From Chiloscyllium plagiosum (Eukaryota), in NCBI RefSeq assembly GCF_004010195.1, contig NC_057719.1:19539562-19603561 (forward strand): DNA of 64,000 nt. The letters run 5' to 3'. The position numbers and the translations under genes were made by a program. Under the pieces are notes generated by a model, which made no database searches, had not been told where the DNA came from, and saw only the letters and a list, made by a program, of their open reading frames with translations. Numbering within the stretch: the stretch's first letter is position 1; every line of letters starts with the position of its first letter. Positions 300 to 58,972 of the stretch are shown here, piece by piece.

Positions 300-770
300 G
301 TTAGTACCTCCCACTGTCAGCATCCCTGGGTATTACTATTGAATGGAAACTGAATCGCACTAGCCATACAAATATTCTGACTACAAGATCAGGTCAGAGG
401 CTGGAAATCCTGCAGCACTCAAGAGTTTTGACAAGGCAGTACAAGGCAGCCCACTCGATTGACACCACAACCACAAAGTGTTTCACCCTCCACTAATGAT
501 GTTCAGTAGCAGCAGTGTATGTCATCTTCATTATGCACTGAATAAACTCACCAAGGTTCCTTCCAAACATGTGGACACTATAATCTAAAAGGCAGCACCA
601 AGATCCCCCTCAAGCTACTCACCATCCGGACTTGAACATAAGTCACTGTTCCCTCAGTGCCTCTTTGTTAAAATCCTGAAATTCATTCCTGATGATATTT
701 TTTATCCCTCCACAAGTTGGACTGTGGCAATTCAAGAAGTTAGTTGACCATTACCTTGTCAAAATCATAA
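300..770 (+). mobile_element. Decayed 3' fragment of a CR1/L2-group LINE (family 2)
   Basis: Resembles the reverse complement of the 3' part of the LINE at 36110-36700 (aaatcctgaaattcattcct; caattcaagaag...accattacctt). Confidence 0.55.
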
Positions 771-9395: not shown

Positions 9396-11454
9396 AGCCC
9401 CATGTGAAAACCAAAGCTTCCTAGCTCAAGGAGTGAACTGCCCTCTGTGTTACTGATTCAGGGCATAGCCCAGTGGAAAGCAAATCACCTCCTGCCCCTT
9501 ATCCCTGCCCTCCCACTTCATGGACTGGGACCTGAACGTCCTTGATGGACAGGGCAGTGAAGAGAAAATCTTTCCTGTTTCCACAGGAAGCCATACCACC
9601 AGTCCAAATCAGTCTGGATCCAAACTGCAGCCTGGGCTGATGCTGTGTTTGAGGTGAAGTGGGAGGCAGTTCAATGATCGTTTGCCCTCTGCAAGGGTAA
9701 GCCCTCATACATGGGGTGAAGATGCAAGACAAAATATCACACAAGATTTCTGAAAAGAATAGTTGTTTGAAATTTATTTCCAAATAAAAAATTATTTAAT
9801 CACAGTGGAGAAATTTAATAACATTCCACAAATAAAACATTACTTTATTCGGGAATTAGGTCTGTGTTTCAGCAATGACTGTCACTCAGCTCACTATACA
9901 TTTTCTCACTGCTACCTCACATTCGCAGGCTACCACTCACTCTAACTCTGCACATCTCTCACCAAAGCTCATGGCCTGGAACTCCCACTACTGCATGTAT
10001 TACGTTCGCTCAACGACTGTCCTCCCAAACTACCAACCCTCCCTTCCCTCTGTGTTACAATAGAAGCTGGAAGTCTGTAACTGAGTATTACAAACCCAGT
10101 GCTCTAAGAAAGCAACATGAAGTGTACAGAAACAAACACAGGAAATGCTGGAGAATCCGACTGGATTCCTCTCTTATTAGAGAAAGATGACTGGTGATGG
10201 TTTAACCTGAGGGTCATCATGTCTCAGGTGAGGGGGAAGGATGAGAATGAGAGTCCTTTGTGGTAAACATAGGATAGTAATTTAGAATAGGATAGAAGCA
10301 TATTGTCACCTTTATTTTTTCAAAATATATAGTGAGAAGTTTTCAATTGCCATACTCTGTCACCTATATTAATAACAAATTGTATTTCCAAAAAAATTAA
10401 GACAAAGTTCATCTTTGTTCAATTCATGGCTCATGTGTTGCCAAGTTCAAGGAAAAGACAAGAACTACATTTTCCACCACTGAAGAAAGCCAATATTGAA
10501 GCCACTGAGTCTTAGAATCCTGGGCTGGAGTACCATACCACTGAGAATGCCATGAAATGCACCTGAAAGATCATAGCTAGTGTGGGAAATAAACCCATGC
10601 TGTTGGTATTACTCTGCATTGCAAACCAGCTGTCCTGCCAACTGAACTGACTGCCTCTTCCCTCTTTCTTCAGAAATAGACAGAGGCTGACACCTTCCAA
10701 GTGAGCAGGAGAATGGGTGAGCACTAAGAAAGCAAGCTCACAGCCATAAGATGGATTATGTCAATGCATGAGATGCATATATCTCCCTGCAACCTGGTAG
10801 AAGAACAAGCTCGGTGTCACTGTGCTCTATAGTAAAGTAAAATGGACTAAAGTGATGAAAGAGCTAGCCAAGAGCAAACATGAAGAGGTGGTGAGGCTGG
10901 TGGTTTGAAGGGTATACAGTCATGGAGGCCATGGACCGTATAGCGTTTTCTGAAGAAATAGTGGCTTGATATTCAGGATTAGACATAGGCAAGCTGCCAA
11001 GTGTCCACTCGTTCCCTCATTATGATAGCGACTACACTTCAAAAAATAAATCATTGTCTACAACAACTTTTTTGAAGCTCCAAAGTTAGGAAAAACCCTA
11101 TAGCCCAGATCTTGCAGTTGGCAGTGATGCAAATGTGATCACTACTGACCTTGAAGAAAGCTTCACTCGAAGATCCAGCAACATCTGTCTTGCCTTCAAT
11201 TCCATTACCATAAATTGGATGATGGCACTCTTCAATGGGGATTCCCAGTGTAGTGCTACAGTGATGTTGTCAAGCTGTCTGAATGACCAATCAGATGAAT
11301 GAATTCTCACAGACAACCAGGAAATAAAAAGCACTGAAATCAATTCACTTTAAAACAAAACTTAACTTATGTAAATTAAATGTTGGCACTTGTACACAAT
11401 GTGAAAGTATAAGATGAAATCACAATAGTGTGGAAGCAGGCTATTCACCTCATC

Positions 11455-11783
11455 ATAGAACATAGAACATAGAAGAATACAGCGCAGTACAGGCCCTTCG
11501 GCCCTTGATGTTGCGCCGATCCAAGCCCACCTAACCTACACTAGCCCACTATCCTCCATATGCCTATCCAATGCCCGCTTAAATGCCCATAATGAGGGAA
11601 AGTCCACCACTGCTACTGGCAGGGCAGTCCATGAACTCACGACTCGCTGAGTAAAGAAACTACCCCTAACATCTGTCCTATACCTACCTCCCTTTAATTT
11701 AAAGCTATGCCCCCTTGTAATAGCTGACTTCATACGTGGAAAAAGATTCTCACTGTCAACCCTATCTAAACCCCTAATCATCA
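11455..11783 (-). mobile_element. CR1 LINE 3' end
   Basis: (catagaa)n tail; ORF 11536-11790 has FFTQRVVSSW.ALP. Confidence 0.88.
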
Positions 11784-11784
11784 T

Positions 11785-12047
11785 GTCCACACTGACCCTC
11801 CAAAGAGCATACTGCCAAACACCTCTGCCCCCCAGCCTATCCCTGTAACCCTACATTCCCCATGACCAATCCACCTAACCTGCACATCTTTAGACTCTGG
11901 GAAGAAACTGGGGCATGCGGTAGAAACCCATGCAGACACAGGGAGAATGTGCAATCTCCTCACAGACAGTTGCCCAAGGCTGGAATTGAACCTAGGTACC
12001 TATTGCTGTGAGGCAGCAGCGCTAACCACTGAGCCACCAGGCCGCCC
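11785..12047 (-). mobile_element. HE1-like SINE
   Basis: Reverse complement has a gggcggcctggtggctcagtggttagc head (A box), ggttcaattcc (B box) and the HE1 core. Confidence 0.85.
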
Positions 12048-13499
12048 AGAAGTATTGCACAAGATTTTTGGAAAGAAAAGGTGTTGGAAATTTACATCTA
12101 AAAAAAAGCCATTAGATTATCATAAACTTGACATCACTCCACAAATAAGGTATTACTTTTTTGAGAAGTTTTGTCTGTGGTTCAGCAATAACTGCCACTT
12201 AGCTTACTATACTAAAATCCAGGTGAGTCAGAAGGTCATGGTTCAAGCCCTGCCCACTCCGCTTGTATGTCATTATTTTTCTGAAAGGGTTGATTGAAAA
12301 ATCTACAAACTCCCAGAGATGCCTCGTTGAATTATGGAACAATATTTGTAATGTGAGAGTGGAGAAGTGAAATCACATAAACTGACTTCATTGAAAGATG
12401 GATGTGGAGATGGGTTGGTGAAGAGATAGGTTCCACATTGCAGCCTGAGACAGTGCCGTGAGTAACAGACTATAACCTTTGGATCTTACTTGTGCCGAGT
12501 GAACTTCCCTGATATAGTCGGACCTGATGATTCTATTGGGTGCTTGTTTATAACATTGAGCATGCCATGAGACTATAATTTGATTCACAAACATGTCAGA
12601 TATCAACCCCATGGCATTGTTTATTCATTTTATGAATTCTTGTAAATTCATTGTTTATTCATTCAAAATTTATCATTTTCAAAGAAGCAGGTACAATGTC
12701 ATATGGGACTTGTGATATTTCTAGGATTAGGTCAGACATGTAGTTTTGTTCCCGTGTACTCATTTCAACCCCAAACATCAGTACCTTGACTGACAATGAG
12801 ACCAACCTCTTGCTCAGCTTCAAACAGAAGGATTGCTTGGGAATAAGAAAGCACTTACGTATAAACGCCAGCCATCAGTATTTGAAATTAGCAGTTAAGA
12901 TTCAGTATTATGAATGTGAATTCCAGAGTGGAACTTGACTGCCAGGAATACACAATGATAAAATCTGCCCTTTACTATTTTAAGAGTTTTATATTTTCTA
13001 TCCTTGTTTCCGCCAGCTAGTGCTGCCTTCCATTTTTCGACTTGAGGTCAGTCTTAGTTCCCTGAATCCTCAGAAAGAATTTATACTCGCCATAAGTTCC
13101 ATAGCATGGCCAGGATAATAAGCATGTAGCTGTACCTTTAGTTTCTTCAGATCCTGGATTATGCCTTTTTAGCATCTCGCCAACTTTGGAAGAATTTGAT
13201 CAAGCTAATGTGCCTTAGAAGTTGCAGACAAAATCACTTTTAATATTACATTATAGACAAGTTCTCTCCTCTTCGAAAATCCCAGGACACTCACTTGTTG
13301 AGGTCCAAATAGTGTACAAGTGATTAGATGTTAACTTCTTTGAAGTTGCCAAATAACTACACAGCATGTTCATGTTTGAAATATGTTCTTTGCCTTTCCA
13401 TTCAAGCAAACAGGATCATAATTGCAAAAATGCATTCAGACAAGCTGACTTTCAACCCCTTGCTGTCTGGCAGACTCATATATAAATGACCTGGAGGAA

Positions 13500-15109: not shown

Positions 15110-16935
15110 ACTCACTCTTTGCAATAATTCCTAGCCTCGCCTTTTAAGGTTTTTTTTTTAAAATGTTCCAAATGCACAGCAGGTTAATGATCCTATAAAA
15201 TAGGAAATGACAGGTTAATGGTTCAGTGTGATCCTTTATCAGAGCTCAGTTCCAAGGGCTTTGCTTCGATGATATTGACTTACTGTTATCTCTCCTGAAG
15301 CTAATTAAAAAATAAAGTTTGTTTCAAATAGTTAAGCTGGCCTATCCTCAAGCCTGTTCTGGTTAATCCCTCTCAACCCCTCTCCCAGTCCACCAACAGT
15401 GTCCCCTCCCCAATATATGGTTATATGATACCATAAGGGACACTGTCAGATATGTCTGGCAGTTTAGCTACTTGATTTCAGAATCGGCTGCCAACTGGTG
15501 TTCTTTAGGGCATGTTAAGAAAAGGTTTGAAATCACAAGTTGATAAAGCATATCTAGAAAGTGTTAGTAATAGATAGCAACTGGAACTAGGAACTGAAAA
15601 CAGAAAAGACAAATTCAATATTTCAACTGCAGCTCTCAACAGTTTTCTGCATAAAAAGAAAAGTTTTTGCTCCTTTCAAATGTTTTCTGCCATTTTTTTC
15701 CTTCCCTCAGATTTCCAACACCTTCAGTAGGTCCTGTTTATCAAATTAATTTATGGGATATGGGCCTCAAGGATTAAACCAGCATCCATCCCAGATTACC
15801 ATGCAGAAGGTGATGGTGAGCTGTCTTCTTGAGTCACTGAAGTCCATGTGGTGTGGGTATGACCACAGTGTTGTTAATGAGGTTTAGTCATTGTAACAAT
15901 GTCAGCCAACTGGACCTCAGAGTGTGAGTTCCCTGATTCAGGCTGTTAATCTGGTCCAATTGCGGAGGCTTGGCTGATATATTAAAAGTGTGAATGTCAG
16001 AGATTACTGACACTGTGTCCAAGACAGTACAGGAGTCAAAGATTGTTCTTGTGTAAATAAAGGGTAACTTGGTGATGGTACACTGACCTCTGTGGAATTA
16101 TTTCAGCATCGACAAGAGCAAAGTACAATCCTGAAGAAATTTGCTGACAACTGTCGTCTTTGAGTTGGGGTAAGCAATTCTCCCATCATGCCTTTGTTGG
16201 AGAAGCTTCACTTATTCACCCCCGCCGTTGAGGACTGTGCCCAATATGTGGCGAGAATGCAATATTTAACTCTGGACAAATGGCACTGTGGCAGACAAGA
16301 AACAGTGAATATTTCACCTGATAGCCTGTGGAGCTGTATTTTTTTCTGTCATTAAGAGTCTAACTTTCCTTGAGGCACCAGATATTAAAACCTTTTAAGA
16401 ATTGACTGACATAGTTAAGGAATATCCTCTAATTCTGAGATGCTATCACTTTTACTCAGCAATTTGAGAACCAGGGGAATCAATATTGGGATTGTTGACT
16501 AGGTTAAGAGAATTAGCAGAAGACTGTGAAGTTGGTTTAACCCTTAATGGGATGACAAGAGACAATCTGTTATATGAGATTAACGATGTAACGATGCAAA
16601 ATACCTGCAAGTTGAAGGCCAAGTGAACTTCAAACAGGTGCTACAACTGGCCCTACCATTGGAAAATACAGCAAGTGGAGCATACGAGTTACAAGTTATT
16701 CAAATGGAAGTGGACATCCCTTGTCAGTCTGATTGAACTTGGGGAACATAACTTCAGTGCAGGTAGTTGTGTAGTCTCACGCAGGAGGGACTCTAGATCA
16801 TCCAACAACAAAACCCCAAAACAAAGCCAAGCCTCAGCTAAATGGTGAAAATGTCCTTCAGGAGTCTGGCTGGTAAACCATTCTAGTTGCTGTAGGTATG
16901 CGGATTCAAGACAGCAAATTAATCTTACTAGACCT

Positions 16936-17546
16936 TGTGATGATGCTGCTCCTTTGAGGTTATTCTGTCCTTGTTTATTTTTGTGAGGGGTTGTAAATGC
17001 AGGAGCTCCAATGTGTCTGGTTTAAATGGGTTTTAGGGCCAATTTGATTATAGCTAACAGATACTGCCTCAGGCACAGGGCTTTCAAGTTAAAAAAACTT
17101 GTACAATGAAATAGGAGTGGCCAGTTCTGCCAGCACAGCTTTTCTCAGGTTTGTTTTGGTTTTAGCAGCTGCTGGGCAGGTTCTAGCTGTTTTGCCGTGG
17201 CTGGACCCAAAGAAACTAGCCCAAGCTGATCCTCTCTCTCTCTGATATCTCTCCTGTAAGAACCTGTGTTTCATTTTACCGTTTTTGCAAAGGGATGTTG
17301 CAAGTATTTGGAACAGATAATTATGTTACAATAGACTCAATTGGGTTTTCAAATAGCTATGCTATTCTAAATTCAGTTTTGTTTTATTCATGTGTAAATA
17401 AATTTTATTTTGTTTAAAACTGAGTGGTTGGACCAGCCCCAACACCTCTGGAATATCCACTGGTCACTACTTAAAACAACTAAAACAGTTAGGGTCTGGG
17501 CTACCTTCTTGACGCATTTTGAGGGGGTCTGGCTTGGTCCATAACA
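16936..17546. mobile_element. Solo LTR (family S) nested in the Gypsy gag region
   Basis: TG...CA termini, perfect 4-bp TSD acct (16932-16935, 17547-17550); homologous in reverse orientation to 22992-23551 and 32003-32642. Confidence 0.85.
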
Positions 17547-18835
17547 ACCTAAATTGAGTAAGATAACTCATAGGCCAGTATTCAGGAAGACATCTGGAGG
17601 ATTTCATACCTTGGAAAGTCCACCTACATGTGATGTGGAACAATTAATTTGTTTAGCAACATCAAAATCAGAACCAATCAAGATAAACATCTGTTAAATG
17701 ACATCTCATTCTAATTGAGGTTGATACCAGCACAGCCATTACAGAATTCTCTCTGGACTCGAGTCCTTAACTTTGCACAAGATCTCAGCTTGACTGAAAA
17801 CCTATACTGGGGAATCGTTGCAGATTAAGGGTATAACTTTAGTTTCAGTCTCTTATGAGAAGCAGCTGGTTCAGTTACCAGTGATTTGAGTAAAAGGCTC
17901 AGGCCCAAGCTTGATGGGGCAAAATTGGCTGTGAGAGATTCACTTCGATTGGCTCAACATTTTTCAATTAGAAAATGGCCACCTGAGTGAAATACCTGGA
18001 AGTCTTTCAGGAAGGTCTACGGACTAACAGAGGAGCCAAGGTGCATGTTGACAAAGAAGCCATTCCACAATTTTGAAAGGTTTGCCCAGTTGCCTTAGGG
18101 ACAAAGGTAGATCAGGAACCCAAAGGCAGAAAGTGAAGAATCATCAGTCTGCTCCAGTTAGCAGCAAGGGTAGTGCCTGATATACCGAGTTTGAAGCCAA
18201 ATGGATGAGTTCACCTTTGTGGGATTTTAAACAAATAGTAAACCACTTTTTTGCCTCTGGATAAAAGCCAATCCCTTGTGAAGAGGATTTATACACAAAG
18301 CTGGCAAAGGGCCTATTCTTCATGAAGCTTGACATGTATGGACAGCTCCATACCACCCATCATCCAATGGCTTTGCAGAAAGAGTGGTGGAAACTTTGAA
18401 AGCTGGATTGAAGAAACAGCCTACATCCTTGGTAGGTATCCAACTGCCATTATTCTTGTTTGATTATGGGACCACCCAGCATGCAACTACAAAGATAGCT
18501 CCAGTAGAGTTACTCATGCATAGAAGACTTCACATCAGGTTAAGGCTGATCTTCCTCACCTGGGGAGGGATGAAATGGCATCAGAAATTCCAATGTCAGA
18601 CTCAAGTCTCTGCCAAGCCGCCCTTGTCAGATGCAAATGGGGGAATCTGGCACAGTGATAAAATACCCCACATGGCTCTTCAAGAAAAAGGACCGGACTA
18701 TGTCCTCAAACTCAGAGTAAGGGGGAGATGTAATGACTGTAATAAGGTAGCCAGCCGGACATCTTAGATGATGAGTTCCTTAATTGGGGCTGCTACTCTG
18801 GTCCAATCAGGGTAACCTGGCTGTCATACAAAAAA

Positions 18836-19560
18836 GGGAATGCGCTGTGATCCCCTGCAACCGCAGATTGCAGTGGTTCACGGACTCTCAGCCCAACTGC
18901 TTGTTCTGTGGTGCTGTGGAGTCCGTGGACCATGTATATATTGGGTGTGGGCATTTGCACTCCCTTTTTGATTTCCTCAAAAACCTCTTTCTCTGCTTTT
19001 GGTTGCACTTCAGTCCCACGCTCCTGATCTTCGGGCACCCGGTACGAAGAAAGGAGGGCAGGTCTGAAGACCTCCTCGTGGGTCTGCTCCAGGGCCTGGC
19101 CAAACTGGCCATAAATAGGTCCAGGCAGCGGGCTGTGGAAGGGGTCGTTAGGGCCGACTGCCTGCCCTCTTCCACGGTTACGTTAGAGCCCGGGTGTCTA
19201 TGGAAAAGGAGCACGTGGTGTCCACCAACACCCTGGAGTTGTTCAGGGAGAGGTGGGTGCCGCAGGGAGTGGAGTGCATTATTTCCCCCTCCAACTCCAT
19301 TTTGATTTGATCCCTGCCCTCCCCTTCACTGTTTGATCACACAGCATTGCTCTTTCATGTGAAGGGCACTGCTTGTCATTGGCCACTTGGGTGTTTCTTT
19401 TCTTCCTGGTGGTGGAAATTTGAATAAAGATTCGTGCACCTTGTGTCTCTCACTGTGTCTCACACCTACACACACACAACATGGGTGCTGGGGAAAAAAT
19501 AATCACTACCGCAGTTAGGCGTAGTGTGGGGGAAGAAAAAAGAGAAATGCAAAAAAAAAA
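18836..19560 (+). mobile_element. Tx1/L1-clade LINE 3' fragment, copy 1
   Basis: C-terminal zinc-binding motif CLFCGAVESVDHVYIGC, LAKLAINRSRQR, a 3' UTR with AATAAA, a terminal stem-loop and an A-rich tail. Confidence 0.8.
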
Positions 19561-19802
19561 CAAATAAACAGGAGTGTCAGAGGTTCTGAGAGCTTCATTC
19601 TGAGAGCTGCCTCTGAGGGAGCTAGACCAGTATCAAGGACACTCCGTGTGTATGTAAAGGGTGACTTGGTGACAGGATATCAGCCTGTGTGGAGTTATTT
19701 CACTGTTGTCTGTCAGAACCTGTGCCATTGGACATCAGAGGAGGACATTATGTTGTGATAAAGACATTCAGATGAAATTTAAAAAAAGAAAAAGAAGAAG
19801 AA

Positions 19803-20533
19803 GGGAATGCGCTGTGATCCCCTGCAACCGCAGATTGTGGTGGTTCACGGACTCCAGCCCAACTGTTTGTTCTGTGGTGCTGTGGAGTCCGTGAACCATG
19901 TATATATCGGGTTTGGGCATTTGCACTCCCTTTTTGATTTTCTCAAAAACCTCCTTCTCTGCTTTTGGTTGCACTTCAGTCCCAAGCTCCTGATCTTCAG
20001 GCACCCGGTACGGAGGAGGGAGGGCAGGTCTGAAGACCTCCTCGTGGGTCTGCTCCTGGGCCTGGCCAAACTGGCCATAAACAGGTCCAGGCAGCGGGCC
20101 ATGGAGAGGGTCGTTAGAGCCGACTGCCTGCCCCTCTTCCGTGGTTATGTTAGAGCCCTTTGGTGTCTCTGGAAAAGGAGCACGCGGTGTCCACCAACAC
20201 CCTGGAGTTGTTCAGGGAGAGGTGGGTGCTGCAAGGAGTGGAGTGCATTATTTCCCCGTCCAACTCTATTTTGATTTGATCCCTTCCCTCCCTCTCACTG
20301 TTTGATTGCAGAGCATTGCCCTTTGATGTGAAGGGCACTGCTTGTCACTGGCCACTCGGGTGTTTCCTTTCTTCCTGGTGGTGGGAATTTGAATAAAGAT
20401 TTGTGCACCTTGTGTCTTTCACTGTGTCTCACACCTGCACACACACAACATGGGTGCTGGGGAAAAAATAAGCACTACCGCAGTTAGGCGGTAGTGTGGG
20501 GGTAAAAAGAGAAATAAACAAAAAAAAGGAAAA
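19803..20533 (+). mobile_element. Tx1/L1-clade LINE 3' fragment, copy 2
   Basis: Colinear with copy 1 and has the same 5' junction. Perfect hairpin cactaccgc-agttag-gcggtagtg at ~20473-20496; followed by the right half of an LTR (20534-20600). Confidence 0.8.
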
Positions 20534-21039
20534 ATAAACAGGCGTGTCAGGAGGTTCTGTTCACTCAGAGCTGGTTCTGAGGGAGCTGGATCAGTATGGA
20601 GTGAAGGGAAGGACTCTGCTCTCTCAAGGGAAGAGGAGACTGATTTCTTTTTTGTCATTGGTTTCTTTGCAGTAAGGAGGAGTTTTATTCTGAAGTTCTT
20701 TTGATTCTTTATATTGTTTACTGAGATTGTTTGCTTGTTTTCTGGCTTTTTCTTTTTGGCTTATTAAAAAAAAGGGAATGCGCTGATACTCAGGTGTGAT
20801 TTACCCTCTTACCTGCTGTTGTAGCCAACATAATTGCATGGCTTGTCCACTTCAGTTTCTGGTCAATGGTATATCCCGGGATGTTTGTTGTGGGAGGGTG
20901 GGGGGGGGAGGAGTTCATCAATGGAAGTCTCAATGAATGCCAAGGAGTGATTGTTAAATTCTCTCTTGTTGAAGACAGTCAATGTCTAGCATTTGTGTAG
21001 CATGGTGATGCAATATCCGAGTGATATTATTAATCCAGG

Positions 21040-22991: not shown

Positions 22992-23551
22992 TGTTATTAT
23001 ATGGACGAGACCAAACTCCCTCAAAATATAATAACAGGATAGCCTCAACCTTAATATTTCATTATTTTAAAGGCAAGTGAAAGGTGTTGGAACAACTTAA
23101 CTCTGTTGGAAAGCTCGACAGAATAATAGATTATTTAACTACTAAACAGTAACTGTTCCAATGCAGTACCACCCAAACGTACACCCTTGGCAAAAGCAAA
23201 TTCAGTAAACTAGATTGTTTCACGGGTAATTCTCCATTCCGGGAGGCAAAAAGCATCATGAGATGACTCAGAAAGTGATTAGCAAGGGGAGATGTACTAT
23301 AGCTTTCAAAACTAGCTTCAGTCTCCAGCAACTGGTACTAAAAATTAAGGCTAGAACTTCTGGCTCTGGGAGAGTTTGACCCTGCTCATTCAGGATGCTT
23401 CTATTGTTCAAACTTGAAAAATAACCCCAAGGCCTCACAAGCTGCTTACTTTATTGGATTCAAATAGACAACTTATCACCTTGGTCTTAAAACCTCTCTT
23501 CAACAAAGAACCAGGACAAAATACACCTCTTGAAGCCATAGTATCATCACA
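22992..23551. mobile_element. Solo LTR (family S)
   Basis: tgtta...atcatcaca termini; flanks ttgg/ttag (4-bp TSD, 1 mismatch). Confidence 0.75.
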
Positions 23552-26695: not shown

Positions 26696-27072
26696 GGAGA
26701 AAGTGAGGAGTGCAGATGCTGGAGATCAGAGTCGGGAGTGTGGTGCTGGAAAAGCACAGCAGGTTAGGCAGCATCCGAGGAGCAGGAGAATCGAGATTTC
26801 AAGCATAAGCTCTTCATCCGGAATGAGGGGATGGCCCGAGGGGGCTAAAAGATAAATAGGAGGGTGGGGATGGGGGTAGGAGGGAGGTAGCTGAGAATGC
26901 GACAGGTAGATGAAGGTGCCAGATTGGAGAGGAGGGTGGGGCAGATAGGTGGGAAGGAAGATGGACAGGTCAAGAGGGCATTGCCAAGTTGGAAGGTTGG
27001 ATCTGGGATAAGGTGGGGGAGGGGAAATGAGGAAACTGGTGAAATCCACATTGATCCTGTGTGGTTGGAGGA
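26696..27072 (-). mobile_element. Penelope-like element 3' end (pLTR)
   Basis: Same pLTR as 2695-2790, with tail gtgaggagtgcagatgctggag; hammerhead core mutated to CGGAUGA. Confidence 0.85.
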
Positions 27073-31400: not shown

Positions 31401-33000
31401 CCCATCATGATTTTAGTCCCCTTCCATTTCAGGTGCAAATCGTGTTTCTTGTACAGGTCACTTCTATGTCTGAAGAGATTTCAATGATCCAAAAATATGA
31501 ATCTCTGCACCCTCCACCAGTTCTTCAACCACACATTCATCTGCTCTATCCTCCTACTCCCACTCTCACTAGTTCATGGCACCAAGATTAATCCAGATAC
31601 TACTACCCTTGAATTTTTTTAACATCCTGCCTAGTTATCTGTATCCTCCCCTCAGAACTTCATCCTTTTCTCTTCTATGTCATTGGTACCAATGTGTACA
31701 ACAACCTCCTGCCGGTCACTCTCCCCTTTGAGAATATTCTGCACCCTCTTCAAGACATCCTTGATCCTGGCACCAGAGAGGGAACATACCACTCTGCCAC
31801 AGAAACATCTATCTGTGCTCCTGACTAGAGTCCCCTATCACAATCGATCACTTGGAACCTGATGTACCCCTCATTTCACGAATGGAAACCTAACTGTCAG
31901 TGCTACATTCCTCTGAGAGTCCATCACCCCCCACATTTTCCAAAAGAGCATACTTGTTTGAGATGGGGATAGCCACAGGAGACTACTGCTCTATCTGCTT
32001 ACTGTTATGGACCAGGCTAGACTCTCTCAAAACACTTTAGCAAGGTAGCCCAGACCCTACCTTTTCTAGTTGTTTCGGGCAGATTGTAAGGTGGATACTC
32101 CAGGAGTGATGCAGCTGGTCAAACCACTTGGGTCCAAGTAAAACAGAACTTATTTACATACCACTGAATGAAACACAAACAAAAGAAACAGAATTTAGGA
32201 TAACAACTATTTGAAAATCTGACCAATGTGATCTCCCTTGTAATTTAACAAAGAGCTATTCAATTTCGTGCAACATCTCATAAACAGACCCATTGACAAA
32301 AAGGTAAATTCAAACACAGGTTCTTACAGGAGAGAGAGAGACCACTGAAAGAATCAGCTAGGGATCATTTGCTGAAGCATTAAACCCCTTTTTGCTCCAG
32401 CAGCTTCTCTGTTCCCACCAGTTTCTAACTGCTACAACTCAATCAAACTAGAAAAATCCCTGAACTAGGAGAACTGGCCACTCCCCATTCATTGTATGAC
32501 TGCTTTTAGAAAAACCTAAAGGCCTCCCCCTGATTGTGGGGGCAATCTCTGGTAACCATGTCATCACCTCTACCTTTTACAACCCCTTTTGAAAAAAAAC
32601 CCAAGGACAACATAACTTTGTTAAAGGAGTAGCATCATCACACTACCTCTCCCACCTTTCCTAGAGGTAACCCATCTACCTGACTGTATCTGCGTTTTTT
32701 TTACCTTCCTGAAATTGTCATCCATTACACACCCTGGTTCTTGTAAATTCCTCATTGTCAACCGCGTGATTTAACAGGATTCACATCTAAACACACTTCC
32801 TGTACACATAATTATCAGGAACATTGAAATTCTCCCTAATATCCCATATCCGACAAGAAGAGCACATCACTCTACTAAAAGCCATCTCTGCACCTTAATC
32901 TGTAGAACCAGAAAATAGCAATCTTTCTGCTCTAAAAACACTGCTCTAGGATAACATAGTACTTCTGTTTTTTTTTAATTTAAAAAATAATATTTAATCA
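28495..33000 (-). mobile_element. Near full-length decayed CR1 LINE (ORF1 zinc finger and esterase; ORF2 endonuclease and RT)
   Basis: ORF1 start at 32885 (MAFSRVMCSSCRIW..NYVYRKC) and esterase motif VVVHIGTND at ~31679-31705. Endonuclease EVIWVEL..YYRP at 30828-31025; RT VSRFADT at 29215-29484; 3' tail at ~28500. Interrupted by a solo LTR; many stops and frameshifts. Confidence 0.88.
32003..32642. mobile_element. Solo LTR (family S) nested in CR1 ORF1
   Basis: tgttatggaccagg...gcatcatcaca; flanks ttac/ctac (4-bp TSD, 1 mismatch); reverse homologue of 16936-17546. Confidence 0.82.
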
Positions 33001-33121: not shown

Positions 33122-34413
33122 GTAGTGGAGGGCTCAATCATAACACAGAATTTATAGCAAAACTTTACAGTGTGATGTAACTGAAATTATACATTGAAAA
33201 ATTGATTGTCTGTTAAGCCTTTCATCTGTTAGAATACCATGATAGCTTCACTTCTTTCATGTGTAAATCACAAAACCTTTTTTTAAAAAGTTGCATTCTC
33301 AGGTTAGCTGGTAACAATGGTGATAGCTAGACAATATGTTGAAGGTGTTAGCCCCCTGTGTTCTCTGTCTATGCCATGATGTTTNNNNNNNNNNNNNNNN
33401 NNNNNNNNNNNNNNNNNNNNNNNNNNNNNNNNNNNNNNNNNNNNNNNNNNNNNNNNNNNNNNNNNNNNNNNNNNNNNNNNNNNNNNNNNNNNNNNNNNNN
33501 NNNNNNNNNNNNNNNNNNNNNNNNNNNNNNNNNNNNNNNNNNNNNNNNNNNNNNNNNNNNNNNNNNNNNNNNNNNNNNNNNNNNNNNNNNNNNNNNNNNN
33601 NNNNNNNNNNNNNNNNNNNNNNNNNNNNNNNNNNNNNNNNNNNNNNNNNNNNNNNNNNNNNNNNNNNNNNNNNNNNNNNNNNNNNNNNNNNNNNNNNNNN
33701 NNNNNNNNNNNNNNNNNNNNNNNNNNNNNNNNNNNNNNNNNNNNNNNNNNNNNNNNNNNNNNNNNNNNNNNNNNNNNNNNNNNNNNNNNNNNNNNNNNNN
33801 NNNNNNNNNNNNNNNNNNNNNNNNNNNNNNNNNNNNNNNNNNNNNNNNNNNNNNNNNNNNNNNNNNNNNNNNNNNNNNNNNNNNNNNNNNNNNNNNNNNN
33901 NNNNNNNNNNNNACACACACACACATGCACTGTCTCACACTCACAACCCCCAATCCAGACAGACACACATACACAGATAGACAAAGGCCCACAAGCACAC
34001 ATATATTTTGTGGGGTGAATTTGTACTTTCAGGGTTACATTGTACTTTTCTCAAAAACTGCATGCATTCATGTAGAACTTTGAACTCAAAAACTGCATGA
34101 AATCATGTAAAACGCCATTATCTCACTTTTTAGATTACAATCAATCTAAACATCATGGCATAGACAGAGAACACAGGGGGCTAACACCTTCAACATATTG
34201 TCTAGCTATCACCATTGTTACCAGCTAACCTGAGAATGCAACGTTTTAAAAAAAAGTTTTTGTGATTTACACATGAAAGAAGTGAAACTGTCATGGTATT
34301 CTAACAGATGAAAGGCTTAACAGACAATCAATTTTTCAATGTATAATTTCAGTTACATCACACTGTAAATTTTTGCTATAAATTCTGTGTGTTAGGATTG
34401 AGCCCTCCACTAC

Positions 34414-35550: not shown

Positions 35551-37362
35551 ATCATTACAATTTACTTTTCTTTGCTGTCAATACTTTCATTGTCCTCTCA
35601 AATCCTATGATACTTTCAACCAGTGAGATGTGTTGAATTTTCTTTTCAATTTTCTCAATTCATCACAAAAAAAAGGACTGAATTCTTTTTTTACAAAGCT
35701 ATGCCTTTCTCCATTTAAAATTAAGTTACTTATTTTTACTGTAAGGAATAAGGAGCCAATCACAAGTTTCCTTGAGTTATGGAAAGAGCAATTTTACTAT
35801 CTGCTAAACCTGAGAAAACTAACAGAGATGGGATATCAAGTGTACAGCTTCCATGTAATCCCACACTGCCATGATCCCAGCTGAAGGTAATACTGGGCAC
35901 GTCAGCTCCAGAGTGAAACTTGGCTTCGTAACTTTTATTTTGGTTACAATGGTGGACTGTCATGGAACTTATTCACAGAAGACTGCCAATATACTTTTGA
36001 CAAATGAATATCAGTTTACTACATGCAAAAGAGGCAAAAATACAAACTACATTACATCATAGAAGAACTGTTTGAAACTCTTTTTATATCTGCTAGTGGC
36101 TTGTAAGTGGCCCTAGTTAGCCTTGAGAAGGTAGTGGTGAGCTGCCTTCTTGAGCCACTGCAGTCCACATGCTGTATGTTGAATCACAATGCCATTAGGG
36201 AGGGAATTCCAGGATTTTGATCTAGCAACAGTATGATATATTTTCAAATGAGGATGGTAAATGGCTACAGGGGAATATGCAGATGCTGGTATTCCCATGT
36301 ATCTGTATGTGCTGCCCTTGTTTCTTTAGATTGGAAGGTGCTGTCTAAGAATCTTTGGTGAATTTCTGCAGTTAATCTTGTAGACATTACATACAGCTGC
36401 TACTGAGTTAATGGTAGAGGGAATGGGTTGCTTTGTCTTGTATGGTGTCAAGCTTCTTGAGTGTTGTTGGAGCAGCATTCAACCAGGCAAGTGGGGAGTA
36501 TTACCTCACACTCCAGACATGTGCCTTGTATATGGTGGACAAGTGGGTTCAGGAGGTGGGTTGACCATCTCTTATAGCCAATCTGTTGCTAATGGTGAGT
36601 CCATTTTAGTTTCTGGCCAAAGGTAAGACCCAGAATGTTGATAGTGAGGGAATCAGTGGTGGCAACACCATTGAATGTCAAAGCAGTAGTAATATCGCCT
36701 CTTATTAGGGATGGTCATTGCCTGGCAATTGTGTAGCATTCATGTTATTTTTCACTTGTCAGCCCTAGCCTGGATATTGTTCAGATCTTGTTGCATTTAA
36801 ACATGGACTGCTTCAGTATCTGAGGAATTGTGAATGGCGCTGGACATTGTACAATCGTCAGTGAACATCCTCACTTCTGACCTTATGATGAGGGAGAATC
36901 ATTGATGAAGCAGTTGAAGATGATTGGGCCTAGGACAGCATCCTGAGGAACTCCTGCAGGGATGTCCTGGGGTTGAGATGACTGATCTTCTGATGTGCGA
37001 GGCATGAGTCCAACGTGATACCCATTGGTTTCAGTATTTCTCGGGCTCCTTGATGCCACACTTGATTGAATGCAGCCTTGATGTCAAGGGCTATCACTCT
37101 GACCTCACCTCTGGAATTCAGCTCTTTTGTCCATGTTTGAACCAAGGCTATACTGAGGTCAGGAGCTGAGTGTCCATGGTGGAAGCCAAACTGGGTGTCA
37201 CTGAGCAGGTTATTGCTGAGCAGGTTCTGCTTGATAGCACTGTTGCTGACACCTTCCATCACATTACTGATGATTGAGAGTAGACAAATAGGGCAGTAAC
37301 TGGCCAGGTTGGATTTGTCCAGCTTTTTGTGTACAGGACATATCTAGGAAATTTTCCACATT

Positions 37363-50796: not shown

Positions 50797-51115
50797 TTAG
50801 ATTAGATTACTTACAGTGTGGAAACAGGCCCTTCGGCCCAACAAGTCCACACCGACCCGCCGAAGCGTAACCAACCCAGACCCATTCTCCTACATATATC
50901 CCTTCACCTAACACTACGGGCAATTTAGCATGGCCAATTCACCTAACCTGCACATTTTTGGATTGTGGGAGGAAACCGGAGCACCCGGAAGAAACCCACG
51001 CAGACACGGGGAGAATGTGCAAACTCCACACAGAGAGTCGCCTGAGGCGGGAATTGAACCCGGGTCTCTGACGCTGTGAAGCAGCAGTGCTAACCACTGT
51101 GCTACCGTGCCGCCC
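50797..51115 (-). mobile_element. HE1-like SINE, young full-length copy
   Basis: A box, B box (ggttcaattcc), conserved core and (taatc)n tail; highly similar to 53626 and 58661. Confidence 0.93.
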
Positions 51116-51479
51116 ATTTGGTCAGAACTCTGCAGATGCTAAAAATAATGAAGAAAGTCTGAGCTCTCAGGTGCAATCAGCCACAATCTCCTCAGATCAA
51201 CAATGATCTCATTGAATGATAGAATAAAGTTGAAGGACTGAATGGCCTACGTCTGTTCCTATAGAGACAAAAGAACTGCAGGTGCTGAAATTCACAGCTT
51301 GCCATGTCTTATGGTCTTATAGTGTGAGTGTTCCAGGGGAAAGGAAAGCCACAACCCATTGGACAGGAACCAAGAAGAAGTAGTTCCATGAAACCCACAG
51401 ATTGGACAGGGAAAAAAAAATTCTCTAGATTTTTGAATACAAGTAAAGTGATTGGGTTGGGAAATTAGTATTTTTGTTC

Positions 51480-53295: not shown

Positions 53296-53625
53296 ATACA
53301 GCGTTCCACAGACTGAGGACATGGTCAAGACGAAATTGGTCAAGAAATCCAGGATATGGTTTGAAAAAAAACATGTTTCAATAGAGCAGCTGAGTGCCAT
53401 GATAATAATTCTTGTAATTAAAGATCTCCTAGCTGATGTTATGGGTCAACAATCTGATTCAGCAGGGAAAAAGATCTGTGGAGTGGAAATTCAGTAAATT
53501 AGGGTCTAAGTTTAGGAGGAATATGTCTGGCATAAGGTAAACCTGAGTGATAAAAAGGCCTTCCAAGGTAGACAGACTTTACAGACCATGCAGAGTCAAG
53601 AACAGACTTAAGGTCAACAATTTGT

Positions 53626-53943
53626 GGGCGGCACGATGGCACAGTGGTTAGCACTGCTGCCTCACAGTGCCAGAGACCCGGGTTCAATTCCCGCCTCAGG
53701 CGACTGACTGTATGGAGTTTGCACGTTCTCCCCGTGTCTGCGTGGGTTTCCTCCGGGTGCTCCGGTTTCCTTCCACAGTCCAAAGATGTGCAGGTCAGGT
53801 TAATTGGCTATGCTAAATTGCCCGTAGTGTTAGGTAAGGGGTAAATGTAGGGGTATGGGTGGGTTGCGCTTCGGTGGGTCAGTGTGGACTTGTTGGGCCG
53901 AAGGGCCTGTTTCCACAATGTAATGTAATCTAATCTAATCTAA
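53626..53943 (+). mobile_element. HE1-like SINE, young full-length copy
   Basis: gggcggcacgatggcacagtggttagc head, B box ggttcaattcc and (taatc)n tail. Confidence 0.93.
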
Positions 53944-58225: not shown

Positions 58226-58660
58226 TTCTATTTTAGATAAATGTATTGTTCAGTTCAGATCTTTCAATTTGGAAGCAGATATGAAAATGTGAAGTGATAA
58301 TGGAATGACTGCATTATTTTAGAAGACTGCCAAATTAAGCAGTTTAATTCTTGTGTATATTTGTTTTTCTTTAGTTGTAAGTAATTTGTGAATTCAATAT
58401 TTTTGGATTTGCATTCCTTCCAAGGATGTTATCTTGCTTTGTGGGGAGAATTAGATTGACATTATGAGGGATAATGTTATGACTTCATGCATCATCAGAT
58501 TGAATTACAATAACAAACAGTCCCTTAGTTTCAGAAGGAAAAATAAAGATGCTATGCTATAATGAAAGAAGAGGTAAATTTAATTGTTATTAATTCAAAA
58601 GCAAAGTCTTTATTGCATATCTGAAATAACAACAGGTAATGCTGGAAGTACTCAACAAGT

Positions 58661-58972
58661 GGGTGGCACGGTGGCACAGTGGTTAGCACTGCTGCCTCAC
58701 AGCGCCTGAGACCCAGGTTCAATTCCCACCCCAGGCGACTGACTGTGTGGAGTTTGCACGTTCTCCCCGTGTCTGTGTGGGTTTCCTCCGGGTGCTCCGG
58801 TTTCCTCCCACAGTCCAAAGATGTGCAGGTCAGGTGAATTGGCCATGCTAAATTGCCCATAGTGTTAGGTAAGGGGTAAATGTAGGGGTATGGGTGGGTT
58901 GCGCTTCGGCGGGTCAGTGTGGACTTGTTGGGCCGAAGGGCCTGTTTCCACATTGTAATGTAATGTAATCTA
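58661..58972 (+). mobile_element. HE1-like SINE, young full-length copy
   Basis: Nearly identical to 53626-53943. Confidence 0.93.

Follow-up and report, generated by a model that had tools for sequence, protein, structure and literature searches.

The 64,000-nucleotide stretch of Chiloscyllium plagiosum DNA analysed here, called the window below, contains a decayed LTR retrotransposon whose 3′ LTR is split by a piece of a Tx1-clade LINE, with a second, similar LINE piece downstream (Table 1). The host element fits Ty3/Gypsy in having two LTRs, a polypurine tract (PPT) and integrase last in pol, the integrase match in the domain search lying under the curated Pfam cut-off (rve_3, E 5e-4) and showing 52% identity to a protein with Integrase_H2C2 and rve domains. 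No reverse transcriptase (RT) remnant of the host element was identified in the window. The left part of the split LTR matches 15883-15981 of the 5′ LTR with 72% identity (E 9e-11) and its right part (19562-19702) matches the right part of the 5′ LTR with 73% over 70 nt (E 2e-8), which bears out the original prediction that the first LINE copy splits the 3′ LTR. Because the two LTRs are only ~70% alike and the outer flanks (15878-15882 versus 19703-19707), compared for a 4-6 nt target-site duplication, do not match, the element is, judged from its sequence, either very old or furnished with LTRs from different copies. The label "TATA-like" for the insertion site reflects the appearance of the word. 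Within the internal region, 16992-17546 is an LTR-like repeat of another family (TGT...ACA) with relatives at 32003-32508 (minus strand, 66%) and 23000-23070; no matching flanks were seen around it.

Table 1. Features of the split LTR and the two LINE pieces (window coordinates)
Feature	Position	Strand	Remarks
5′ LTR of decayed LTR retrotransposon	15883-16105	+	~70% identity to split 3′ LTR; PBS-like stretch follows
Internal region, decayed and deleted	16106-18713	+	Unrelated LTR-like repeat inside at about 16992-17546
Integrase remnant	18333-18560	+	Final coding piece 5′ of PPT (Gypsy-type order)
PPT	18714-18728	+	From sequence
3′ LTR, left part, to TATA-like position	18729-18829	+	72% to 5′ LTR; multi-copy in reads
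Motif T1 = A6 + GGGAATGCGCTGTGA	18830-18850	+	Not LINE sequence
Tx1 copy 1: last ~150 ORF2 codons and 3′ UTR	18851-19532	+	
Decayed poly(A) tail, copy 1	19533-19563	+	Reads show poly(A) behind hairpin
Target word ATAAACAGGAGTGT (19564-19577) and right LTR part to LTR end	19564-19702	+	
Spacer 1: low-copy DNA, ends in 22-nt A/GAA run	19703-19802	+	Depth 0-2 reads
Motif T2, head identical to T1	19803-19817	+	
Tx1 copy 2, truncation point as copy 1	19818-20502	+	Perfect 10-bp terminal hairpin
Decayed poly(A) tail, copy 2	20503-20533	+	12-nt interrupted stretch in common with tail 1
Target word (13/14) and 64-nt LTR stub	20534-20597	+	
Spacer 2: T-rich DNA	20598-20765	+	No homology to end of unit 1
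Motif T3 = A8 + GGGAATGCGCTGA	20766-20786	+	No LINE behind

Taken with their heads, the two LINE pieces (18836-19532 and 19803-20502) are 93% identical, with 638 matches and 46 substitutions in 684 aligned columns and four gap runs. Each stands ahead of the same LTR word, as had been described, with AAATAAACAGG at 19562 and 20532 and no further plus-strand site in the window at one mismatch or fewer; the nine differences earlier counted by eye within the first 160 nt were found again on recounting. The first 15 nt of both copies (GGGAATGCGCTGTGA) are not LINE sequence, family homology beginning at 18851 and 19818, and the first 14 nt of T1 match the LTR target word at 9 of 14 positions. The LTR sequence reported after copy 2 is present, but as a stub of 64-66 nt ending at 20597 rather than half an LTR. 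No match to a left LTR half was found near 19700-19800, 5′ of copy 2, so copy 2 does not lie within a second LTR, and spacer 1 (19703-19802) has no second match within the window. Copy 2 has neither the left LTR half nor the target-site duplication of its own that an independent insertion into a second LTR would bring, its head being identical to that of copy 1.

An A-run followed by GGGAATGCGCTG occurs three times, at 18836, 19803 and 20774, with spacings of 967 and 971 nt that delimit two units, although the ends of these units are unrelated. The third occurrence (20766-20785), missed by the original prediction, has no LINE behind it. Several further relationships were tried and rejected against shuffled or background sequence: homology between spacers 1 and 2 (621 of 1000 shuffles scored as well), derivation of spacer 2 from an inverted unit 1 end (59 of 500), the DNA after T3 as the native right LTR half (849 of 2000 as good) and a longer T1/T3 match upstream of the A-run (equalled at 24 of 87 A-runs). 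Directly after T3, 20798-21003 is a piece of a dispersed repeat matching 307-409 (minus strand) and 36564-36739.

The assignment of the LINE to Tx1 is supported: the translation of copy 1 is 52% identical over 89 aa to ORF2 of Xenopus Tx1L (YTX2_XENLA, P0015; E 2e-17), and the best longer homologue, P0001, 70% identical to copy 1, is also nearest Tx1L (41% identity over 99% of the P0001 length, E 1.5e-138); human L1 ORF2, compared through the PDB set, scores only about 1e-6. P0001 has RVT_1 and zf-RVT matches, both under the cut-off, and the whale shark proteome contains an 87% match. Copy 1 retains the zinc-knuckle region of ORF2 (Pfam zf-RVT weak, E 0.053) with one frameshift near 19164 and a stop near 19310; an RT domain of the Tx1 element is absent from the window. 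The 3′ UTR of copy 1 contains AATAAA (19423-19428) and a terminal hairpin (19503-19528) that is damaged (z -1.5), whereas the 46-nt hairpin of copy 2 (20465-20510) has a perfect 10-bp stem (z -4.98, matched by 0 of 200 shuffles) just 5′ of the poly(A). Because the reads described below carry the copy 2 letters, the hairpin is a feature of the family and a candidate RT-recognition signal; folding of the whole 3′ ends did not exceed shuffles (z -1.5 and -1.4). A pattern search for the 3′ hairpin gave 0 matches in metagenome contigs and 0 in genome contigs, and a 16-nt pattern gave 28 viral-contig matches, none longer than 19 nt, which we attribute to chance. Scanning for loci by protein returned three metagenome loci with only 28 residues matched at 50%, and none in genome contigs.

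To place the pair within its family, the query 18603-19802, covering copy 1 only, was aligned at a likeness of 80 to 4 of 24 listed runs: two runs of raw reads from organism A, of which about 4% each was covered, and contigs from organisms B and C. No listed run holds more than 0.54 of the window's words, and organisms A-C are probably relatives of the window's species rather than that species. In run X21 of organism A, depth over the LINE rises about 3-fold toward the 3′ end, from about 1870 (18883-18922) to 5740 (19443-19482), corresponding to ~9,500-13,000 3′ ends, or roughly 10,000 copies, given an assumed genome of 3.2-4.5 Gb. Loose read ends before 18851 (1067 and 1020 reads in the two runs) agree at 94-95% and read as upstream ORF2 codons, while position 18850 is covered by just 42 and 38 reads, with another letter in 38 and 28 of them. 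Given these upstream ORF2 ends and the rising 3′ depth, both copies are 5′-truncated pieces of a longer, abundant LINE, and the 15-nt head they share lies outside the family. Behind the hairpin the reads end loosely in poly(A); together with the depth gradient and seven other truncation points, this displays the poly(A) 3′ end and variable 5′ truncation expected of Tx1. The idea that the pieces represent a non-autonomous Tx1 derivative fails in organisms A, B and C, where ~1,000 reads per run continue into ORF2 and the head is low-copy; a fixed 5′ end common to many copies, as a SINE would have, is not what the 42 and 38 mostly differing reads show, and no fixed-end partner was found in these reads and contigs.

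The LTR is likewise multi-copy (depth up to 1771, and about 745 at 18763-18802), nearly all copies being without this internal region (depth 0-7 at 18603-18722). Empty LTR sites exist, the joint 18812 to 19564 appearing in 22 and 20 reads, and the flanks beyond 19702 are diverse. One organism B contig at single-copy depth spans 18603-18880 with 7 substitutions and 6 gap letters, and the 5′ junction of copy 1 is therefore real and shared. In contigs of organisms B and C, A tails seem to close some LINE pieces at several places before the hairpin is reached (19375, 19378, 19417, 19464, 19479 and 19499), which suggests alternative polyadenylation or related families with shorter 3′ UTRs.

Whether the family prefers the LTR site can be judged from joints between distant parts of the query, with the proviso that such tables record junctions between query parts only and are blind to copies with unrelated flanks. 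The analysis covered the 12 best-supported of 379 rows. In seven of these, all from organism C, the LINE begins directly behind a target-like word or no more than 5 nt further on, its 5′ ends lying at 19337, 19264, 19318, 19059, 19223, 19268 and 18987, always on the same strand; by eye, one falls on the window's own word and the others match at 13/14, 10/14, 10/14, 9/14, 9/14 and 9/12, the 13/14 row running from left LTR half through word to LINE. Among these 12 best of 379 rows, independent copies with seven truncation points thus share site and orientation. The remaining rows comprise two in which the 3′ part of the LINE meets the A-run that precedes the right half of the LTR, one empty LTR, one LTR-internal joint and one LINE-LINE joint from organism B with neither tail nor target. 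LINE-to-LINE back-joints, which were not chosen for the word, have an A tail and a match of nine or more in four of five cases; the background is 44 of 253 A-runs in the window reaching 9/14 at the best of 11 offsets (17%), a binomial probability of about 0.004 worked by hand. A 12/14 target-like word at 26852 was set aside, being in an unrelated repeat.

Because of the organism C junctions and the excess of back-joints over background A-runs, a real but degenerate family preference for the LTR's TATA-like word is supported. The 3′ ends able to abut this LTR directly amount in both organism A runs to at most 8% (451/5740, from the first 40 nt of the right half) to 31-32% (1771/5740, from the best LTR bin), an upper bound that omits stacked copies and diverged LTRs; the criterion of Kojima 2015 is more than 20% of flanks of one type. 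The proposal that Tx1 targets a fixed LTR site therefore survives as a family-level preference drawn from junctions in another species, and receives no support from the pair that inspired it. A version without true targeting, in which an L1-like liking for A-rich nicks meets a common LTR that happens to offer one, would suit the upper bound of 8-31% for LTR-abutting ends and the several junction words matching at only 9/14. It seems very improbable, since the matches do not stop at the A-run but cover part of the G-rich half of the word, most rows keep them in register with the 5′ end of the LINE, and the back-joints stand at 4/5 against 17%.

For the pair itself, we consider one insertion followed by a local copy, and not a second landing, to be the probable origin. 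An abundant autonomous Tx1-clade LINE would favour an A-rich, degenerate word resembling ATAAACAGGAGTGT, and the TATA-like site of this LTR family would match that word best and most often. The LINE would insert there in one orientation by target-primed reverse transcription, as clade biology implies. One 5′-truncated insertion would have struck this old 3′ LTR. Not long after, a local copying event at the DNA level would have reproduced the head, LINE piece and tail together with the first part of the LTR half to give copy 2, probably through micro-homologies of the A-run and T motif, whether T copies exchanged unequally or replication switched template. Three parts of this account are inferred: that an endonuclease drives the targeting, that a copying step took place, and how T3 arose. 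As one option, T may be this LTR's own target in a layout T-X-T-X-T, arising from one transduced insertion duplicated and then altered or from two transductions; as another, the first insertion may have acquired T1 as a patch taken from T3 close by, with copy 2 then placed between the spacers by A-run template switching.

Several features favour copying. The copies share both truncation point and 15-nt head, a private 5′ junction that independent 5′-truncated insertions would seldom have in common, and no left LTR half lies 5′ of copy 2. Their tails have in common a 12-nt interrupted stretch (27 of 3000 shuffles, for a statistic picked after seeing it) where the read consensus is plain poly(A); whole-tail alignment was no better than shuffles (2302 of 5000). 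Copy 1 differs from the majority of reads at 24 counted sites (from 27 listed, excluding the head site and two near-50% sites). In copy 2 the same departure appears at 5 of these and the majority letter at 18, and 1 falls in a gap; five shared non-majority alleles against 2.4 expected (P=0.08) is not significant by itself. By eye, the departure at LTR site 19632 is also common to both copies. The divergence comparison, on which the case against duplication had been built, gave statistically similar substitution rates in LINE and LTR, 46/684 (6.7%) and 6/65 (9.2%; Fisher p=0.44), and with the private junction shared, the argument from the two copies fails the check set out with the original proposal. 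The contrast between more similar LINE parts and less similar LTR parts is weak: it is not significant for substitutions, while four gap runs in the LINE versus three in the LTR stub make gaps denser in the stub (p=0.02), one of the three being a 5-nt insertion missing in about half of the reads (91/167 and 99/170).

Other observations weigh against copying, at least in a simple form. The copies differ by 6.7%, nearly as much as two unrelated family members; since copy 2 has the majority letter at 18 of the 24 sites private to copy 1, any duplication would have been early, with a split at about a fifth of the copies' age, or the two pieces would just be members of a single subfamily. Over their final 169 and 176 nt the units have no relation to each other, a pattern that plain tandem duplication leaves unexplained, and T1 and the target word on the right disagree at 5 of 14 positions, so there is no clean target-site duplication. 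L1 elements undergo 5′ truncation, 3′ transduction and templated junction patching, processes that could account for the truncation of the copies, for an LTR stub brought along and for a 15-nt head of foreign origin.

Three other origins of the pair were weighed against a copied insertion. An unlikely one is stacked retrotransposition with 3′ transduction, in which T (A-run plus GGGAATGCGCTG) would be the native target and its target-site duplication, giving T-X1-T-X2-T; each X would be the retrocopy of a LINE lying in an LTR elsewhere, read through into the LTR half and flank, from one master or sister masters, with micro-homology to T setting the common truncation point. Three T copies, each behind an A-run, are what stacked insertions leave, T matches the family target at 9/14, unit 1 ends in a 22-nt A/GAA run, the distal flanks of the units differ, and stacked LINE-LINE joints are present in organism C. 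Contigs of organisms B and C moreover carry spacer 1 in two versions (place 19734), as would a source and its copy, but also a pair of alleles. Against this, the same truncation point would have to arise twice on weak micro-homology, since the head departs from the family's upstream letters in its final three positions. An additional poly(A) is not clearly visible in unit 2, the sequence beyond T3 shows, as noted, no significant likeness to an LTR, and one master ought to yield the same transduced flank twice.

It is quite improbable that misassembly made a chimera here, bringing in copy 2 with its flanks from a different locus or haplotype by way of the repeat. The window does have three N gaps, the units are nearly equal in length (967 and 971) despite unrelated ends, and the read and contig alignment covered copy 1 only, with no run above 0.54 of the words; yet two alleles would not be expected to diverge by as much as 6.7%, identity around the T2 junction runs unbroken for about 37 nt at most, and the organism B contig spans the 5′ junction of copy 1 while spacer 1 has both reads and contigs. 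We give very little credence to the reading originally proposed, two independent insertions of a fixed-end non-autonomous Tx1 derivative at the same site of two LTRs, which is largely refuted in organisms A, B and C. Both copies do end at the same LTR word and the family favours that word, but among the 42 and 38 reads over 18850 no more than 4 and 10 have a letter other than the family's, the head is low-copy, ~1,000 reads per run extend into ORF2, and no left LTR half precedes copy 2.

Tx1-clade elements offer several points of comparison, and the Tx group as a whole is described in the text of PMC3747384 as inserting target-specifically. The text of Kojima 2015 (PMC4494074) describes LTR-preferring Tx1 families in crocodilians, Tx1-8_Crp and Tx1-4_AMi, whose LTR preference resembles that of the shark family at the level of the LTR. 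According to the same text, Tx1L of Xenopus laevis sits in the non-autonomous piggyBac element Tx1D. Tx1L is the nearest named protein to the shark LINE and both target another transposon, but the target of Tx1L is a DNA transposon and that of the shark family an LTR, and copies of the shark family are far more numerous than strict insertion at a single site would lead one to expect. Tx1-Mar/SINEU, Keno, Kibi and Koshi, with Mariner-N4_AMi, U2 snRNA genes, (TC)n and (TTC)n given as targets in PMC4494074, show a target preference like that of the shark family, for different targets; SINEU is the model for a non-autonomous partner sharing its target, whereas no fixed-end partner was found for the shark family in the reads and contigs of organisms A-C. 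Our literature search, with Repbase entries and subscription journals outside its scope, found no account of a shark Tx1 element at an LTR TATA box.

If the preference is as proposed, an APE-type LINE reading a ~14-nt word at an LTR's TATA-like site would bring an additional target to the Tx1 series, thousands of natural insertion sites would be available from which to read the endonuclease's specificity, and LTR promoters would have been disabled or captured at large scale in shark genomes. The principle is already on record in crocodilians, and the present pair does little to strengthen the case for LTR targeting; it also cautions that two copies at the same LTR word need not mean two targeting events. 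A more speculative extension, which we think distinctly unlikely, is that the LINE captures the LTR promoter at the TATA box, mobilises LTR pieces and builds T-X-T-X-T arrays like this one. Even 5′-truncated copies would then lie under the LTR promoter, ahead of the LTR poly(A) signal, read-through RNAs would bring LTR halves and flanks to new target sites, and the LINE would spread the split halves.

Elsewhere in the window, 33143-34390 contains an inverted repeat with arms 97-98% alike (33143-33384 and 34148-34390) around an N gap (33385-33912), possibly an assembly artefact. A young dispersed short repeat, its copies 90-95% alike, occupies 53624-53923, 58659-58958 and 50900-51129 and is one of several abundant SINE/LINE-like families in the window.
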